Below are positions 18,642 to 28,356 of a stretch of 43,104 nt of DNA, piece after piece. Location of the stretch: positions 1 to 43,104 of the forward strand of contig CAVYCN010000017.1 in NCBI GenBank assembly GCA_963767005.1. The letters are read 5' to 3'. Made by a program: the position numbers and the translations under genes. How positions within the stretch are numbered: position 1 is the stretch's first letter; the number at the start of each line of letters is the position of its first letter. Below the pieces are notes generated by a model, which was given only the letters and a program-made list of their open reading frames with translations, ran no database searches and was not told the DNA's origin. Source of the DNA: an uncultured Actinomycetes bacterium (GTDB taxonomy: Bacteria; Actinomycetota; Thermoleophilia; UBA2241).

Positions 18642-21139
18642 TGAGAGTGCCGCTTGACTGGTTGCGCGATTACGTCGCCTGGGACCGTTCCGTCGAGGAG
18701 CTCGCCGAGCTGCTCAGCATGAGCGGCTCCGAGGTCGAGGGCATCGACTGGGTGGGGGCGCCGCACGACGCGGCGAACCTCGAGCTGTTCCGCGTCGGCC
18801 GGGTGCTCACCAAGGAGCGCCACCCCAACGCCGACAAGCTCTGGCTCTGCACGGTCGACGTCGGCGCGGCCGGCGGCGGCGTGCACCAGATCGTCTGCGG
18901 CGCCCAGAACTTCGCCGCCGGCGACACGGTCGCCGTGTCGCTCGCCGGCGCGACGCTCGAGAACGGCCTCAAGCTGCGCAAGGCCAACCTGCGCGGCGTC
19001 GAGTCCGACGGCATGATGATGTCCGAGCAGGAGCTCGGCTACGAGCAAGCGAGCCCGGGCATCGTCGTGCTGCCCGCCGACTGGCGGGTGGGCGCGCCGC
19101 TCGCCGACTATCTGCCGGTCGCCGAGCCCGTGCTCGAGATCGAGGTCACGCCCAACCGACCCGACTGCCTGTCGGTCTACGGCGTGGCCCGCGAGGTGGC
19201 GGCGGCGGCAGGCCTGCCGCTGGCGCCGCCGCCCGTCGAGGAGCCGCCCACGAGCGGCGCCTCGGCGGCCGACGCGATCGCCGTCGAGATCGCCGACCCC
19301 GACCTCTGCGCGCGCTATGGCGCGCGCATCGTGCGCGGCCTCGCCGTGCGCGAGTCGCCGCCCTGGCTGAAGGCGCGCCTCACGCACGCCGGCATGCGGC
19401 CGATCAGCAACGTGGTCGACGTCACCAACTACGTGATGCTGGCCGTGGGCCAGCCGCTGCACGCCTTCGACGCCGCCAAGATCCGCGGCGGCAAGCTGAT
19501 CGCGCGCCGCGCCCGTGCCGGCGAGCACCTGGTCACGCTCGACGGCATCGAGCGCGCCCTGCGGCCCGACAACCTGGTGATCGCCGACGTCGAGCGCGGC
19601 CTCGTGATCGCCGGCATCTTCGGCGCGATCGACGCCGAGGTCGACGTGCAGACGAGCGACCTCGTGCTCGAGGCCGCCACCTTCAATGGCCCCAACATCA
19701 TGCGCACCTCCAAAGAGGTCGGCTGGCGCAGCGAGGCCAGCATGCGCTTCGAGAAGGGTCTCGACCCCTGGTACGTGCCGCTCGGCCTCGCCCTGGCGAG
19801 CCGCCTGTTCTGCGAGCTTTGCGGCGGCGCCGTAGCGCCCGGCGCGGTCGACGTGTGGGGGCAGCGGCCGGCCGATCCGCCCCGGCTCTGCTACCGCACC
19901 GACCTGGCCGACCGGCTGCTCGGCCTGCGGGTCGAGCCCGCTGAGCAGGCCGACATCCTCACCCGCCTCGACTGCGCGGTCGAGCCGGCGGCCGGCACGG
20001 CGCCGGGCGCCGAGGCCGACCTGCTCGTCACGCCGCCGCCGTTCCGCCGCGACCTCGAGCGCCCCGTCGACCTGGTCGAAGAGGTCGGTCGCATCCACGG
20101 GCTCGCCAACCTGCCCGAGACGCTGCCCCTGCGTGGCGACGCCATCGGCCTGCTCACCGCCGACCAGCAGGTGCGCCGCCGCCTGGCCGACGCGCTCACC
20201 GGCGCCGGCTTGGACGAGGTCGTCACCTGGTCGTTCGTGGCCGCCGAGGCTGCCGCGCCGCTCGGCCTGCCGGCCGGCGACCGGCGCGCTACGCCGATCG
20301 CCCTGGCCAACCCGATGAGCGTCGAGCAGGCCGTCATGCGCACTTCGCTGCTGCCCGGCCTGCTCGCCGTGGTCGCCGGCAACCTCGCCCACCAGGCCGA
20401 GCGGGTGACCGTGTTCGAGCAGGGCCGCGTCTACCTGCCGCGGGTCGGCCGCGCGCTGCCGGTGCCGGTGTCCGGACCCAAGCAGACGTGCCAGCCGCAT
20501 CCGGTCGACGAGCCCGAGATGCTCGGCATCGCGCTCTGCGGTCCGGCCGGCGCCGAAAGCTGGGCGGCCGCGGCTCGCCCGACCGACTTCTTCACGCTCA
20601 AGGGCTACGTCGAGCGCCTGCTCGCCGCGCTCGAGATCGGCGGTGCGACCTACGAGCGCTCGACCGAGCCGTACCTGCACCCGGGCAAGGCCGCCAGGCT
20701 CCTGCTGGACGGCGAGGTCGTGGGCTCGTTCGGCCTGCTGCGGCCCGACGTGGCGGCGCGCTGCGGCGTCGCGGGCGCCGAGGTCTGGGTGGCCGATCTC
20801 GCCGTGGCGCCGCTCGCCGCGCGCGGCCTGCAGACGGCCCTCTTCGAGGACCTGCTCAGCTACCCGGCGGCCACTCAGGACCTGGCGATCGTGCTCGACG
20901 CCGACGTGCCGGCGGCCACGGTGCTCGAGCTCGTGCGCCGGGCCGGCGGCAAGGTGCTGCGCGACGCCGTCGTGTTCGACGTCTACGAGGGCGACCAGGT
21001 GCCGCCCGGCAAGCGCTCGCTGGCCGTGCGCCTGGTCATGCGCGCGGCCGACCGCACGCTCACCGAGAAAGACATCGGCAGCGTGCGCCGCAAAGTGCTC
21101 GCCGTGCTCGAGCGCGAGCTCGCGGCGACGCTGCGGTAG
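18641..21139 (+). CDS. pheT: Phenylalanine--tRNA ligase beta subunit
   Basis: HPNADKL, IVCGAQN, RGVESDGM, TPNRPDCLS, DLVEEVGRIHG, FDVYEG; TGATG coupling to pheS. Confidence 0.97.
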   Translation: MRVPLDWLRDYVAWDRSVEELAELLSMSGSEVEGIDWVGAPHDAANLELFRVGRVLTKERHPNADKLWLCTVDVGAAGGGVHQIVCGAQNFAAGDTVAVSLAGATLENGLKLRKANLRGVESDGMMMSEQELGYEQASPGIVVLPADWRVGAPLADYLPVAEPVLEIEVTPNRPDCLSVYGVAREVAAAAGLPLAPPPVEEPPTSGASAADAIAVEIADPDLCARYGARIVRGLAVRESPPWLKARLTHAGMRPISNVVDVTNYVMLAVGQPLHAFDAAKIRGGKLIARRARAGEHLVTLDGIERALRPDNLVIADVERGLVIAGIFGAIDAEVDVQTSDLVLEAATFNGPNIMRTSKEVGWRSEASMRFEKGLDPWYVPLGLALASRLFCELCGGAVAPGAVDVWGQRPADPPRLCYRTDLADRLLGLRVEPAEQADILTRLDCAVEPAAGTAPGAEADLLVTPPPFRRDLERPVDLVEEVGRIHGLANLPETLPLRGDAIGLLTADQQVRRRLADALTGAGLDEVVTWSFVAAEAAAPLGLPAGDRRATPIALANPMSVEQAVMRTSLLPGLLAVVAGNLAHQAERVTVFEQGRVYLPRVGRALPVPVSGPKQTCQPHPVDEPEMLGIALCGPAGAESWAAAARPTDFFTLKGYVERLLAALEIGGATYERSTEPYLHPGKAARLLLDGEVVGSFGLLRPDVAARCGVAGAEVWVADLAVAPLAARGLQTALFEDLLSYPAATQDLAIVLDADVPAATVLELVRRAGGKVLRDAVVFDVYEGDQVPPGKRSLAVRLVMRAADRTLTEKDIGSVRRKVLAVLERELAATLR

Positions 21140-21247
21140 GGCAGAGGCGAACGGCACGCAGCGCGGGGCGTGCGGGGCCGGTCGCGCCGAGCCGCCGTCG
21201 CGCTCTGACTACCGCACGGCAAGTTCTCAGGTATTCGAGCGTGCTGG

Positions 21248-21276
21248 TTGCATGATTCTCGACGGTCGTGTAACGT
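21248..21276 (+). promoter_or_regulatory. sigmaA promoter of argCJB; the -35 overlaps an ARG-box-like half site
   Basis: TTGCAT-17-TAACGT. Confidence 0.6.
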
Positions 21277-21286
21277 TCCGCGGACC

Positions 21287-21403
21287 ATGAGCCGTCAGAG
21301 CGACATCATCCTTTGCTCGACGCGCCGCTCCCGCGGCGCCCTCGACGGCTGCTCGCGCCTTCGGTCTCGACGTGCACGACGCACGCCGGCCGGTGGTCGC
21401 TAG
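21287..21403 (+). CDS. Candidate Arg-rich leader peptide of the arg operon (38 aa)
   Basis: MSRQSDIILCSTRRSRGALDGCSRLRSRRARRTPAGGR*; ATG 10 nt after the -10; 11 Arg. Confidence 0.5.
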   Translation: MSRQSDIILCSTRRSRGALDGCSRLRSRRARRTPAGGR

Positions 21404-21509
21404 CGCCTGGTCTCGCCCTCGCTTCATCGCCTGAGACGCTCCTCGCGCCCCACCGTGCCGGCCGTCGCTGCCAGCCGCCGTCCCGCCACGAAAGGTCGCG
21501 AAGCCGCTC

Positions 21510-22588
<1,079 letters not shown>

Positions 22589-22592
<4 letters not shown>

Positions 22593-23968
22593 CGGTCGAG
22601 CAGAAGACGCCGCGCAGCTCGACGCCGGCCCCGCCGGCTCACGAGGCGGCGCGGCCGGCGTCGCCGCGCAAGCCGCACACCGCCCTCACCCTGCCGCTGC
22701 GCGACTGCGGGCCCACCGACCAGCTTCCGCCGAGCCGCTTCGTCGCACTGCCCGAGGGCGTCACGCAGGCGACCGGCTCGGTCACCCATCCGGCCGGCTT
22801 CCGCGCGGCCGGCCTGCACGCCGGCCTCAAGCGCAGCGGCCGGCCCGACCTGGCGCTGCTCGCCTCGGACGCGCCCTGCGTCTCGGCCGTGCTGTTCACC
22901 ACGAACGCCGCGGCGGCGGCGCCGGTGCGTCTCACGCGCAGCTCGTCGTCGTGCGACCGGCTGCGGGGCGCCGTAGTCAATTCTGGCAACGCCAACGCCT
23001 GCACCGGCAAGCGCGGGCTCGGCGACGCGGCGCAGATGCGCCGCGTCGCCGCCGACGAGCTGGGCCTGCACCCCGAAGAGGTCGCCGTCGCCTCGACCGG
23101 CGTGATCGGCGTGCCGCTGCCGATCGAGCGCATCGTGCGCGGCATCGCCGCCGCCGGCCGCGCGCTCTCGCCCGCCGGCGGTCCCGACTTCGCGGCGGCC
23201 ATCCGCACGACCGACCGCACCCCCAAGGCCGGCGCCCTGACCGTGCCGCTCGGCGAGGGAGAGGTGCGCATCGGCCTGGCCGCCAAGGGCGCCGGCATGA
23301 TCTCGCCGCGCCTGGCCACCACGCTGTCGTTCGTGACGACCGACGCGGCGATCTCGCAGCCGGCGCTCGACGATCTGCTGCGCCGCGTCGTGGCGCGCAC
23401 CTTCAACAGCGTCACGGTCGACGGCCAGCAGTCGACCAACGACATGGCGCTGTGCCTGGCCAACGGCGCCTCGGGCGTGAGCGTGAGCGGCCCCGACGTG
23501 GCCGTCTTCGAAGCGGCGCTCGAGGCCGGCATGCTGGCCCTGGCGGTCGCCCTGGTGGGCGACGGCGAGGGCGCCACCCACACCGTGCGGCTCACCGTGA
23601 CGGGCGCCTGGGACGACGCCGAGGCGGCCAGCGTGGCGCGCGCCATCGGCGACTCGCCGCTCGTGAAGGCGGCGTTCTTCGGCGCCGACCCCAACTGGGG
23701 CCGCATCGTGCAGGCCGCCGGCCAGGTGATCGACGCCGGCGGCGGCGCACGCCTGCGCGTCGAGGTGAGCTACGGCGACGTCGCGGTCGTGCGCGACGGC
23801 GAGCCCGTCGGCCTGCCGGCCGCTCGCCGTCGCGCCCTCGCGGCCGTCATGGCGGCGCCCGAGATCGACCTACGTGTCACGCTGCACCGCGGCCCCGGCA
23901 CGGCCACGGTCTACTTCAGCGACTTGAGCCACGAGTACGTGTCCGTCAATTCCGAGAGCACCACCTAG
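22589..23968 (+). CDS. argJ: Ornithine acetyltransferase ArgJ
   Basis: NSGNANACTG, STGVIG, IRTTD, KGAGMISPRLAT, DGEGAT, DPNWGRI; GTGA overlap with argC. Confidence 0.95.
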
Positions 23969-23981
23969 CGAGGTGACCGAC

Positions 23982-24857
23982 ATGACCGATGCCCACCAGC
24001 GGACGGTCCAGACCCTGGTCGAGGCCCTGCCGTACATCCGCCGCTTCCGCGGCACGACCATGGTCCTCAAGTACGGCGGCGCGGCGATGACCTCGCCGCA
24101 GCTCGCCGAGCAGTTCGCCAAGGACGTCGTGCTGCTCAAGCTCGTCGGCCTGCGGCCCATCATCGTGCACGGCGGCGGCCCCGAGATCACGCGGCAGATG
24201 AACCGGCTCGGCATGGAGGCGGTGTTCGTCGACGGCCAGCGCGTGACCGACGCCGCCACGCTCGAGGTGGCGAGCATGGTGCTGGTCGGCAAGGTCAACC
24301 GCGACATCGTCGGCCTGATCAACAGCCACGGCGGCACGGCGGTCGGCCTGTCGGGCCAGGACGGCCGCCTGATCCACGCCGAGGTCAAGGAGCACGTCGA
24401 CCTCGAGGGCAACGCCGTCGACCTGGGCTTCGTCGGCTCGGTCGCCGGCATCGACACGTCGGTGCTCGACCTGCTCGCCGACGACATGATCCCGGTCGTG
24501 GCGAGCGTCGGCGCCGACGACGGCGGCCAGGTCTACAACATCAACGCCGACACGGTGGCCGGCGACCTGGCCGCCGCGGTCAGGGCCGAGAAGCTCGTCT
24601 TTCTGACCGACGTCGGCGGCATCCTCGCAGAGGACGGCTTCGAGCAGAGCGTCGTGAGCGAGTGCGACCTGGCCCAGTTGGGCGCGCTGCAGGGCGCCGG
24701 CAAGATATCCGGCGGCATGCTGCCCAAGGTGGCGGCCGTGCGGCGCGCGCTCGAGGGCGGCGTGACGAGCGCTCACATCGTCGACGGCCGCGTGGCCCAC
24801 GCCGTGCTGCTCGAGGTGCTCACCGACGCCGGCTGCGGCACCAAGGTCGTGTCGTGA
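23982..24857 (+). CDS. argB: Acetylglutamate kinase
   Basis: LVEALPYI, KYGGAAM, VHGGGP, RVTD, YNINAD, GGMLPK; GAGGTG SD. Confidence 0.97.
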   Translation: MTDAHQRTVQTLVEALPYIRRFRGTTMVLKYGGAAMTSPQLAEQFAKDVVLLKLVGLRPIIVHGGGPEITRQMNRLGMEAVFVDGQRVTDAATLEVASMVLVGKVNRDIVGLINSHGGTAVGLSGQDGRLIHAEVKEHVDLEGNAVDLGFVGSVAGIDTSVLDLLADDMIPVVASVGADDGGQVYNINADTVAGDLAAAVRAEKLVFLTDVGGILAEDGFEQSVVSECDLAQLGALQGAGKISGGMLPKVAAVRRALEGGVTSAHIVDGRVAHAVLLEVLTDAGCGTKVVS

Positions 24858-24985
24858 GCGGCATCGCGGCGGGCGCCGCGGCGACCCCGGCGGCGGGGGG
24901 CGCGGCGACGGTCCCGGCGGCGGCGCCGGTGGTCGAGACGACCCCGGCGGCGGGCGACCGGCACGGCTCGTGCGGCGACGGGGCA

Positions 24986-25021
24986 TCGACGCGAGCGGGC
25001 GTCGTGTATAGTATGCACGAC
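24986..25021 (+). promoter_or_regulatory. Internal promoter for argR-argG-argH overlapped by an ARG-box-like inverted repeat
   Basis: TCGACG-17-TAGTAT; GTCGTGTAT-agt-ATGCACGAC at 25001-25021. Confidence 0.6.
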
Positions 25022-25078
25022 ATTCTTGTATCGAGGGGGACTCGGCGGCCGCGGGGCGGCCGTGGGCAGGTGGGGGCG

Positions 25079-25573
25079 ATGTCGGCATCTCTTGTCCGCT
25101 ACAGGCAGAAGGCGATGAGCAAGGCGGAGCGCCAGAGACTCATCCAGACGGTGATCACGCAGCGCGAGGTCGCGACGCAGCGCGAGCTCGTGCACGCGCT
25201 CGGCGCGCTCGGCTGCGAGGTCACCCAGGCGACCGTGTCGCGTGACATCCGCGAGCTCGACCTGCAGAAGGTGCGCACGCACCTGGGCCGCGCGCGCTAC
25301 GTGCTCTCGTCGCGCGAGCGGCCCAAAGACCCGGAGCAGGCCGCCGGCCACGTGCTGCGCGACTTCGCGCGCTCGACGGCCGTCGCCCAGAACATGGTCG
25401 TGGTGCGCTGCGAGATCGGCACGGCCTCGACCGTCGCCCGCCAGATCGACAACCTGAACCACACCGACGTCGTCGGCACGCTGGCCGGCGACGACACCTT
25501 CGTGATCATCCTCAAGGATCAGGCCACGGCCGTCGACATGCAGCGGTTCGTCGACCGCCTCCGAGAGGCCTAG
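25079..25573 (+). CDS. argR: Arginine repressor
   Basis: TQRELV, VTQATVSRDIREL, VVGTLAGDDT; start 25079 or 25115. Confidence 0.96.
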   Translation: MSASLVRYRQKAMSKAERQRLIQTVITQREVATQRELVHALGALGCEVTQATVSRDIRELDLQKVRTHLGRARYVLSSRERPKDPEQAAGHVLRDFARSTAVAQNMVVVRCEIGTASTVARQIDNLNHTDVVGTLAGDDTFVIILKDQATAVDMQRFVDRLREA

Positions 25574-25679
25574 CGCGCAGGCACCTCTCGCGCGCATGCC
25601 ATCGGCCGGCTGCCACGCTGCCGGCTTCTTCTCGCACCCCTCATCGACCGCGCGTCGCGGATCTCGAAAGGAACGACCA

Positions 25680-26933
25680 GTGACAGAGAACAAGACCGTC
25701 GTCCTCGCCTACTCCGGTGGCCTCGACACCTCGGCCCTGATCCCCTGGCTCAGAGAGAAGGACGGCTACGACGTGGTGGCCTGCCTCGTCGACCTGGGCC
25801 GCGTCAAGGACGTGCCCGGCATCATGGCGCGGGCCGAGGCAGCCGGCGCCGTCGCCGCCCTTGCGATCGACGCCAAGGACGAGTTCGCCGAGCACCACTG
25901 CCTGCCGGCGCTCATGGCCAACGCCCTCTACGAGGACAAGTACCCGCTCTCGACGGCGATCGGCCGGCCGCTGATCGCCAAGAAGCTCGTCGAGACGGCC
26001 CACAAGTACGGCGCCGCGGCCGTGGCCCACGGCTGCACCGGCAAGGGCAACGACCAGGTGCGCGTCGACATCGGCGTGCGTGCCCTCGACCCGAGCCTCG
26101 CCATCATCGCCCCCGCGCGCGGCGCCGACTGGCCGAGCCGCGAGGAGCTGATCGATTACGTCACGGCGCACGGCATCCCGATCAACCTCTCCAAGAAGAG
26201 CCCCTACTCGATCGACGAGAACCTCTGGGGACGCAGCAACGAGTGCGGCGTGCTCGAAGACCCATGGGTGGCGCCGCCCGAGGACGCCTTCCAGTTCGTC
26301 AAGTCGGTGGCCGACGCGCCCGACGAGCCCGAGCACGTCGTCGTGAGCTTCGAGAAGGGTAAGCCGGTCGCGCTCGATGGTGCGGCGATGAGCATGGTCG
26401 AGCTGATCGAGACGATCGACGGGATCGGCAACAGGCACGGCTTCGGCCGCGTCGACATGATCGAGAACCGCCTGGTCGGCATCAAGAGCCGCGAGGTCTA
26501 CGAGGTGGCCGGCTCGCTTGCGCTGATCACGGCGCACCGCGAGCTCGAGGACCTCGTGCTCACTCGCGACCTGCTGCACTTCAAGCGCACGATCGAGAGC
26601 AAGCTCTCCGACATGATCTACGAGGGTCAGTGGTTCGACCCGCTCACCGAGGCCTGCAAGGCGTTCCTGTTCCAGAGCCAGGAGCGTGTGACCGGCGACG
26701 TGCGGCTGCGCTTCCACAAGGGCGGCTGCGTGGCCGACGGCCGGCGCAGCGACTACTCGCTCTACAGCTACAAGCTCGCCACCTACACCGACGAGGATGA
26801 GTTCTCGCACGAGGCGGCGGCCGGCTTCATCACGCTCTGGGGCCTGCCGATCGAGGTCTGGGCGCGCATCGGCAAGGAGCACGACCTCATGCACGACCTG
26901 GACGTCGACGACGGGGCGGCCACGCCGGCGTGA
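25680..26933 (+). CDS. argG: Argininosuccinate synthase
   Basis: LAYSGGLDTS, HGCTGKGNDQVR, YSIDENLWG, ENRLVGIKSREVYE. Confidence 0.98.
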   Translation: MTENKTVVLAYSGGLDTSALIPWLREKDGYDVVACLVDLGRVKDVPGIMARAEAAGAVAALAIDAKDEFAEHHCLPALMANALYEDKYPLSTAIGRPLIAKKLVETAHKYGAAAVAHGCTGKGNDQVRVDIGVRALDPSLAIIAPARGADWPSREELIDYVTAHGIPINLSKKSPYSIDENLWGRSNECGVLEDPWVAPPEDAFQFVKSVADAPDEPEHVVVSFEKGKPVALDGAAMSMVELIETIDGIGNRHGFGRVDMIENRLVGIKSREVYEVAGSLALITAHRELEDLVLTRDLLHFKRTIESKLSDMIYEGQWFDPLTEACKAFLFQSQERVTGDVRLRFHKGGCVADGRRSDYSLYSYKLATYTDEDEFSHEAAAGFITLWGLPIEVWARIGKEHDLMHDLDVDDGAATPA

Positions 26934-26961
26934 GCGCCACGGGCACAGTGAGGGAGGGGCG

Positions 26962-28356
26962 ATGAGCACGGCACGGTCGGGCCGGTTCGCCGGCGAGCGC
27001 TCGGCGGCCTTCATCGCCCTGAACTCGTCGCTCGCCCTCGACTGGCGCCTGTGGCCCGAAGACATCGAGGGGTCGGCGGCTCACGCCCGCGCGCTCTGGC
27101 GCGCGGGCGTGCTCGCCGACCCCGAGCGGCGAGCGATCGAGGACGGCCTGGCCCGGGTGGCCGCCGAGATCGAGTCGGGCGCCTTCGTGCCGCGCGACGA
27201 CGACGAGGACGTCCACATGGCGCTCGAGCGCCGCCTGACCGAGCTCGTCGGCGCGCCGGGGGCGAAGCTCCACACGGCGCGCAGCCGCAACGACCAGGTG
27301 GTGACCGACGTGCGCCTGCACCTGCGCCGCGTGATCGAGGGACAGCGCGCCGCGCTGCGCGACCTGCAGGCGCTCCTGCTCGAGCTGGCCGAACCCCACG
27401 TCGAGACCGTCCTGCCGGCCTACACGCACCTGCAGCGCGCCCAGGTGACCTCGCTCGCCCACCACCTGCTCGCCTGGTTCTGGATGCTCGAGCGCGACCG
27501 CGACCGCTTCGCCGGCGCGCTCGACGCCTGCCTCGAGCTGCCGCTCGGCTCGGGCGCCGCCGTGGGCCTGAACCACGACCTCGATCGCGCGGCCCTGGCC
27601 GCCGACCTCGGCTTCGCGCGCATCGCGGCCAACTCGCTCGACGCCGTCGCCGACCGCGACTTCGTCGTCGACTACCTGGCCGCGGCGGCGGAGCTGGCCA
27701 TGCACCTGAGCCGTGTCGGCGCCGAGATCGTCCTGTGGGCGAGCGCCGAGTTTGGCTTCGTGGCGCTGCCCGACGAGGTCAGCGGCGGCTCCAGCATCAT
27801 GCCGCAGAAGCGCAACCCCGACGCCGCCGAGCTCATGCGCGCCGCCGGTCCGCGCCTCGCCGCCGACCTGCAGGGGATGCTGACCACGCTGCACGGCCTG
27901 CCGCTCGCCTACAACACCGACTTGCGCGAGGACAAGCGCTACCTGTTCGACACGGTCGACTGTCTCGACGCGCTCCTGCCGGTCGTGGGCGAGCTGCTCT
28001 TCGGCCTGCGCTTCGACGCCGCGCGCATGGCGGCCGCCTGCGATTCGCTGCTCATGGCCACCGATGTGGCCGACGAGCTCGTCGCGCGCGGCCTGCCGTT
28101 TCGCGAGGCGCACCATCTGACCGGCGCCCTCGTGCGCCGCTGCCTCGAGCTGGGCTGCGAGCTCGAGGGGCTGGCGCCCGCCGAGCTCGCAGCCCTCTCG
28201 CCGGCCCTCGCCGACCTCGGACCGGCGCTCGCCGCCGGGGCGGGCGGCCTGGCCGACCCGCGGCGCTCGCTCGCGGCCAAGATCAGTGCCGGCGGCTCGG
28301 CGCCGGCCCGCGTGCGCGAGGAGCTCGGCCGGGCCCGCGCGGCGCTCGGGGCGTAG
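26962..28356 (+). CDS. argH: Argininosuccinate lyase
   Basis: EDVH, LHTARSRNDQV, YTHLQRAQ, GSSIMPQKRNPD, PFREAH. Confidence 0.97.
   Translation: MSTARSGRFAGERSAAFIALNSSLALDWRLWPEDIEGSAAHARALWRAGVLADPERRAIEDGLARVAAEIESGAFVPRDDDEDVHMALERRLTELVGAPGAKLHTARSRNDQVVTDVRLHLRRVIEGQRAALRDLQALLLELAEPHVETVLPAYTHLQRAQVTSLAHHLLAWFWMLERDRDRFAGALDACLELPLGSGAAVGLNHDLDRAALAADLGFARIAANSLDAVADRDFVVDYLAAAAELAMHLSRVGAEIVLWASAEFGFVALPDEVSGGSSIMPQKRNPDAAELMRAAGPRLAADLQGMLTTLHGLPLAYNTDLREDKRYLFDTVDCLDALLPVVGELLFGLRFDAARMAAACDSLLMATDVADELVARGLPFREAHHLTGALVRRCLELGCELEGLAPAELAALSPALADLGPALAAGAGGLADPRRSLAAKISAGGSAPARVREELGRARAALGA

Follow-up and report, generated by a model that had tools for sequence, protein, structure and literature searches.

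Arginine synthesis is textbook territory of a repressor, ArgR. The arginine cluster of an uncultured member of the Thermoleophilia raises the question of whether a second, translation-based layer of arginine sensing can be encoded in the short region upstream of argC. The stretch of DNA analysed here (the window, 43,104 nucleotides) is contig C17 of a 3.44-Mb genome with a G+C content of 71%. Within it, pheS-pheT are followed by a 370-nt gap and then by argC-argJ-argB-argR-argG-argH, with argR assigned at 128.4 bits, just below the cut-off of 130.45 bits. The initial annotation of the gap had described a promoter, an ATG lacking a Shine-Dalgarno (SD) sequence and a 38-codon open reading frame (ORF) with 11 Arg codons, six of them in codons 24-32, and all of these coordinates hold (Table 1).

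Table 1. Coordinates of features at the argC leader, numbered from the first letter of the window
Feature	Positions	Strand	Basis or detail
Degenerate palindromic operator-like box	21217-21229	+	comparison with relatives, many of which have the box 30-31 nt 5' of the -35 box
Sigma70-type promoter TTGCAT-17-TAACGT	21248-21276	+	motif; -35 box 21248-21253, -10 box 21271-21276
Leader ORF	21287-21403	+	38 codons (37 to 90 in relatives), 11 Arg
5' hairpin within the ORF	21322-21339	+	covaries in genus g10, 5 of 6 pairs changed on both sides
Putative anti-RBS strand, codons 20-26	21344-21363	+	predicted pairing with 21489-21509 if ribosome-free
Candidate Arg control-codon cluster	21356-21382	+	codons 24-32, six Arg; core CGA CGT GCA CGA at 21368-21379
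Core helix, 5' arm (last codons of the ORF)	21385-21396	+	pairing and complementarity
C-rich, G-poor spacer	21404-21509	+	no U-tailed terminator; candidate Rho-loading segment
Core helix, 3' arm (in the spacer)	21450-21462	+	pairing and complementarity
argC ribosome-binding region	21489-21509	+	GAAAGG 21490-21495, CGAAG 21499-21503; CGGAG in most relatives
Putatively regulated cluster argC-argJ-argB-argR-argG-argH	21510-28356	+	gene annotation

The argC leader and its conservation in the family

The promoter falls under the 9-of-12 threshold of our promoter scan and is hence not listed by it. Transcription probably starts at about 21283-21285, and the ORF, whose ATG stands 10 nt past the -10 box with no SD-like run before it, would be translated from a 5' leader of 1-4 nt, i.e. 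in a near-leaderless manner. Genome-wide, distances from the -10 box to the ATG peak at 6-7 nt and have a shoulder at 8-10 nt.

We collected argC loci from 89 family genomes blind to the leader; an order-level search gave the same 89. Of the 71 family loci analysed, we excluded four because they were truncated or wrongly placed (L034, L083, L084, L085); this leaves 67 informative loci, which share ancestry and do not count as independent observations. The positionally conserved, Arg-enriched upstream ORF that the initial annotation had suggested seeking in relatives is present: 61 of the 67 loci, in six genera, have a TTGCAT-like -35 box, a -10 box, an ATG 8-10 nt further on (9 nt in 45 leaders, 10 nt in 11, 8 nt in 5) and a short ORF ahead of this amino-acid biosynthesis operon. 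The leader is missing from six loci: in L012 the start of argC itself occupies this position, and the other five are argC copies that lie in different contexts. In the genomes of three of these copies the leader was located at a different argC start (L008, L210, L211). It was absent from all 13 loci of six other families of the same class. BLAST matches to the leader in G012 and G004 gave no match to the promoter pattern. An exact scan of the genome contigs with the 22-nt core gave 67 matches, 36 of them flanked by argC; the others, most of which lack the promoter, are read as chance. Most records with the leader core carry the label Thermoleophilia.

In 55 of the 61 leaders the distance from the ATG to the Arg core is divisible by three (78, 81, 87, 105, 165, 180 or 201 nt), which puts the core in frame; the cores of the three g7 leaders were placed by hand at the first CGA of the cluster. 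The gaps 5' of the core in an alignment of 33 g10 leaders are whole codons. Single-base slips put the core out of frame in the other six leaders; five of these are in assemblies with a split argC or pheT, the exception being G076. The first two thirds of the ORF are variable and the C-terminal Arg cluster is conserved; a Pfam search of the leader peptide gave no match. CGA-CCG (Arg-Pro) codon pairs recur in leaders of g6, g7 and g8 (L007-L013, L031-L079), three of them in L013. Judged from this conservation, a regulatory leader ahead of the arginine operon is a real, family-wide feature.

The initial annotation had proposed a comparison of the Arg content with shuffled sequence, and this check goes against the leader: the total count lies within the background, as 10.9% of 20,000 dinucleotide shuffles reached at least 11 Arg codons (p = 0.11). 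At least six Arg in nine codons occurred in 4.1% of the shuffles. Among 65,357 random stop-free 37-codon frames of the genome, 18.7% had at least 11 Arg codons and 9.4% a cluster of at least six in nine, and the reverse frame of the leader holds 14 Arg codons, more than the ORF itself. Because the Arg count is within chance, the evidence for the leader is its conservation and not this count.

The distribution and choice of Arg codons within the same ORFs are more telling. In the 55 in-frame leaders, Arg makes up 52% of the nine-codon cluster versus 14% of the N-terminal part, and CGA accounts for 130 of 258 Arg codons in the cluster versus 1 of 183 in the N-terminal part. CGA is indeed uncommon, as had been supposed, at 3.7% of Arg codons genome-wide (crude set of 2,094 genome ORFs). 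All 55 leaders contain at least one in-frame CGA and 51 at least two, and one cluster position is Arg in 32 of 33 g10 leaders by way of CGA, CGG and CGC. Codons for the end product of the pathway are clustered here with a synonymous bias, as is usual for the control codons of attenuators (PMC1183508). tRNA-Arg(ACG) is encoded by relatives and was not found by ARAGORN in the window's assembly; tRNA-Arg(TCG) was found in none of five genomes. In a Salmonella his-leader assay CGA was translated, by tRNA-Arg(ACG), more slowly than CGU or CGC (PMC4046918). ARAGORN also reported a CTA-anticodon tRNA (labelled Pyl) on contig C3 and a tRNA-SeC on contig C4 of the window's genome (G000).

When the genome was scanned blind for the start geometry, the arg ORF came up together with a Leu-run ORF upstream of leuA and, ahead of a TrpB-like gene, a Trp ORF. 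The Leu-run leader (G000, contig C6, minus strand, ATG at 185842; L089, L091-L112) occurs at 22 of 22 leuA loci across the class, with 9-nt spacing in 19, and in the window's genome pairing between its Leu run and the SD of leuA is predicted, as described for LEU elements (PMC1262725). The Trp leader (G000, contig C4, minus strand, ATG at 326754; L088, L113-L125) precedes trpB2 at 10 of 13 loci of the family and at none of nine outside it. Its peptide ends W-L-W-R-A and is followed by a C-rich spacer of about 150 nt with no obvious terminator; its folding under a simulated stall was inconsistent with simple induction. Because the Leu and Trp leaders share the spacing, we regard 8-10 nt as the usual start of leader peptides in this lineage. 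An ornithine carbamoyltransferase gene (G000, contig C3, plus strand, 78221; L090) is preceded by a 13-codon ORF with three Arg codons.

About half of the leader loci have a TGCATA/TGAATA palindrome at -29 to -33 relative to the -35 box, and a further half site of operator type covers part of the -35 box of the promoter; we read palindrome and half site as putative ArgR boxes. Because argR lies within the cluster, ArgR repression and the leader are likely to form two control layers. The idea of a second layer beside ArgR, put forward in the initial annotation, agrees with the ArgR-type palindromes that flank the promoter in relatives. Elsewhere in the cluster, the palindrome-like TGTATAGTATGCA at 25005-25017, between argB and argR, is similar to the boxes at the argC promoter and is a possible internal promoter or operator; TGTATAGTATGCA was missed by a stricter box pattern. 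The spacer between argR and argG (25574-25679) is C- and pyrimidine-rich, and the N-terminus of ArgC is a low-complexity extension of highly variable length in the family (21510-21590 in the window, and relatives).

Predicted folding of the leader transcript

The pairing that recurs in relatives joins the last codons of the ORF to the spacer (core helix). It exceeded shuffles (p < 0.05) in 27 of 33 leaders of g10, 9 of 9 of g6, 4 of 8 of g1 and the single leaders of g3 and g8 (1/1 each), and in none of three leaders of g7. The complementary sequences differ from genus to genus, and covariation was counted on the g10 alignment only because genera pair in different registers. In g10 the core helix is 91.5% paired and mostly invariant, and the 5' hairpins covary clearly; the hairpin within the ORF is possibly a polymerase pause hairpin. 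A different pairing had been proposed from the window alone, in which either copy of GTCTC (21364 and 21410) would pair with GAGAC (21433). These motifs are present, but only 2 of 62 loci of the leader set, those of the window's genome and of the relative closest to it, have the upstream GTCTC at that place, and 1 of 9 loci of the genus has GAGAC; this switch was rejected as not conserved, the conserved pairing being that of 21385-21396 with 21450-21462.

For folding in the presence of a ribosome, we assumed a footprint that reaches from 16 nt upstream of the A-site codon to 9 nt downstream of it. With a footprint of this size, the 5' arm of the core helix is covered by a terminating ribosome and free when a ribosome stands at the first CGA. 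The leader has, on prediction and complementarity, a conserved helix that depends on ribosome position.

In the predicted fold of the window, the core helix continues at its outer end up to a pairing between codons 20-26 and the argC ribosome-binding site (RBS). The stability of this long hairpin does not exceed that of shuffles (z = 0.01). Pairing of the SD with the Arg region in ribosome-free RNA is predicted at 59-86% (51 leaders, four genera) and is above region-shuffled controls in 42 of the 51 leaders; it is 0.92 in the window versus 0.16 in shuffles, of which 2 of 60 were equally high. In 43 of 51 leaders, a ribosome at the first CGA of the core is predicted to make opening of the RBS cheaper than a ribosome at the stop codon does, with a mean saving of 1.5-2.2 kcal/mol in the three large genera. 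A stalled ribosome raises the predicted accessibility of the SD from 0.19 to 0.45 in g1 (0.07 to 0.58 in the window) and from 0.13 to 0.31 in g6; no gain was obtained in g10 (0.15 versus 0.15; 13 of 33 leaders above the stop state) or g3. The isolated duplex of Arg region and RBS barely beats shuffles (mean z of -0.5, -0.6 and -1.9 in three genera; p = 0.09 in the window), just 9 of 55 leaders have the best-pairing segment for the SD 11-mer within the Arg region, and compensatory changes were found in 0 of 12 Arg:SD pairs in g10.

A switch between 1:2 and 2:3 pairings as in ermC was also tried and rejected: a hairpin of the Arg region with the helix arm is the main ribosome-free form in no more than 9 of 51 leaders. 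Predictions give this hairpin for g1 and g10 (mean z of the duplex -1.7 and -1.6) and not for g3, g6, g7 or g8, and it may be a side state. In g6 and g10 (L010, L031-L081), a direct repeat of the Arg-core sequence stands just before the argC SD; it can pair with the core or form a small hairpin with the linker, and is absent in the window's genus. Searches with Rfam 15 gave no match at gathering score in the window and none at E <= 5 in 21140-21560, T-box and riboswitches included.

A scan of 20800-21800 found no intrinsic terminator on the plus strand, in line with the missing U-tailed terminator of the initial annotation, and the longest T run is at most 3 in 58 of 61 leaders. T-rich stretches (at least 5 T in 8 nt) in 8 of 61 leaders, 6 of 9 in the window's genus, were considered as terminators and rejected; in the alignment they form a pyrimidine-rich loop after the stop codon and do not stand behind a strong hairpin.

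Probable arginine sensing and alternative readings

Because of the conservation, the CGA bias, the Leu and Trp leaders and the core helix, attenuation by ribosome stalling on the Arg codons, of some kind, is likely to sense arginine here. That masking of the argC RBS is the primary output of the stall is a reading we favour by a little. The full version, in which CGA, taken as the most slowly read Arg codon, is the sensor and the same Arg-codon RNA locks the argC RBS, with no terminator and stacked on ArgR repression, we hold at about even chances. With ample arginine, the ribosome would pass through the ORF and leave, and one long hairpin would form, nucleated by the core helix. Its base would pair codons 20-26 with the RBS, which would keep argC untranslated, and the naked C-rich transcript may then be ended by Rho. 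With little arginine or charged tRNA-Arg, the ribosome would be held on codons 24-32 and cover the anti-RBS strand, and argC would be translated. Repression by ArgR at the promoter would be a separate layer, to which this control is added.

The same Arg-codon sensor could have Rho-dependent termination as its main output, which we consider rather unlikely. A ribosome at the stop codon would sit on the 5' arm of the core helix, with the spacer left open for Rho, whereas a ribosome stalled on Arg codons would let the helix form and hide the site. The base composition of the spacer speaks for this reading. A recount confirmed the 44 C versus 23 G reported for 21404-21490, and the C>G skew of the window's spacer (0.29) is in the top 1% of genome windows, matched by 0.6% of 1,027 windows before SD sequences and 0.8% of 2,093 windows after stop codons. 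All 55 spacers are skewed in this direction (at least 0.13; genus means 0.13-0.33), also outside the helix arm. Alongside this C-rich segment after the ORF, the window's genome encodes a rho that passes the family cut-off. In all genera the helix arm begins just after the CGA cluster, 54 of 55 leaders are predicted to have more unpaired C in the spacer with a ribosome at the stop codon, and mgtL and speF provide precedents (PMC6386406). On the other hand, the gain amounts to just about 1-6 unpaired C and is partly explained by the smaller number of partners available, the spacers are short (62-133 nt), and neither the excess of SD pairing nor the repeat of the Arg core before the SD in two genera is accounted for. 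As a side observation, no rho above the family cut-off was found in five genomes sampled from three other families of the class, f2, f3 and f5 (97-100% complete).

Masking of the RBS appears somewhat better supported by the predicted folds than masking of a Rho site. The initial annotation had offered both a masked Rho-loading site and a switch of the RNA fold as consequences of the stall; Rho masking is possible and less supported than RBS masking. Nor do the two outputs exclude each other: a C-rich spacer followed by an argC that is not being translated would be an inviting target for Rho.

It is improbable that the leader is a structured RNA, as a protein-binding site or ligand switch, in which the ORF is incidental or constitutively translated. 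Such an RNA would fit the conservation of the core at the nucleotide level, which includes third positions of non-Arg codons, and the covariation of several helices, and a protein-binding role was proposed by the authors of the LEU element (PMC1262725). It would not explain why the position and frame of the ATG are kept over seven offsets, why changes among Arg codons are synonymous, or why Leu and Trp leaders of equal geometry hold their own cognate codons, and no Rfam family matched.

Slightly less probable again is sensing of free arginine or ornithine by the nascent chain, which would then be an arrest peptide like SpeFL or the fungal AAP, or the use of the CGA codons as a constitutive brake and not as a sensor of charged tRNA. 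The C-terminal motif R-R-A-R-x-x-P-x-G-G is near-invariant in g1, g3 and g10, and the recurrence of CGA-CCG pairs in g6, g7 and g8 would suit this reading as well; the peptide nevertheless differs among genera, its N-terminal part varies freely, and the fixed codon choice points to constraints on tRNA and RNA rather than on residues. The Arg count within the shuffle background and the ordinary overall folding energy would also allow an ORF that arose by chance in GC-rich sequence upstream of an operon under ArgR control alone. This is very improbable, and the fact that start, frame, CGA cluster and helix are conserved in six genera largely refutes it.

Relation to known leaders and implications

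Several known systems come close to the arg leader. The LEU element of actinobacterial leuA (PMC1262725) resembles it in having a leader ORF with cognate codons and no terminator; the base stem of the LEU element between control-codon region and SD has a possible counterpart in the arg leader, on which the predictions are divided. The arg leader differs in using Arg and not Leu, in its dispersed cluster of rare codons instead of a run and in its position before argC rather than leuA; of the marks of the LEU element family, a Leu run, a position before leuA and a conserved pseudoknot, the first two are absent from it. The LEU study noted no conserved structures upstream of arginine operons in its Actinobacteria, and mutations of the Leu codons in LEU elements reportedly deviated from the predictions of classical attenuation (PMC1262725). 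The mycobacterial leaderless poly-Cys attenuator Ms5788A (10.1101/834739) combines an upstream ORF, a spacer of about 100 nt and a single long duplex that joins its control codons to the SD of the gene behind it, and stalling frees this SD; the arg leader may fold in a similar way. It is unlike Ms5788A in preceding an Arg operon, in an ATG that is probably 1-4 nt inside the transcript and in its ArgR-type boxes.

Arg codons in the orf34/speFL leader of Salmonella speF, a subject also of 10.1101/604074, sense arginine and steer folding with the involvement of Rho (PMC6386406). That leader is SD-led, controls ornithine decarboxylase and has an output that includes RNase G (PMC6386406), unlike the arg leader. 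Classical trp, his, leu, thr and ilv attenuators (PMC1183508) place biased cognate codons just before a switchable helix arm, an arrangement shared by the arg leader, which in contrast to classical transcription attenuators is without a terminator of hairpin and U-tract. E. coli argL-argF (10.1101/511675) is alike in that a small ORF affects a gene of the arginine pathway; argL overlaps argF, blocking argL raises argF, and the passages at hand from that report show no arginine sensing. No attenuator of arginine biosynthesis was found in the literature searched, which included few subscription journals and no supplements.

The arg leader would represent an Arg version of leader-peptide attenuation in its terminator-less form, with the output step less certain than the sensing. 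The surprise is limited, as the logic is known and the organisms are known from assembled genomes alone. Arginine would join the amino acids that are sensed by stalled ribosomes in biosynthetic operons, and the leader would provide a second natural system, beside the LEU and poly-Cys leaders, for gene switching without a terminator. If true, the near-leaderless Arg, Leu and Trp leaders would form a set in one family of the Thermoleophilia, and leader-peptide control of arginine synthesis would have arisen in the Actinomycetota in a translational form.
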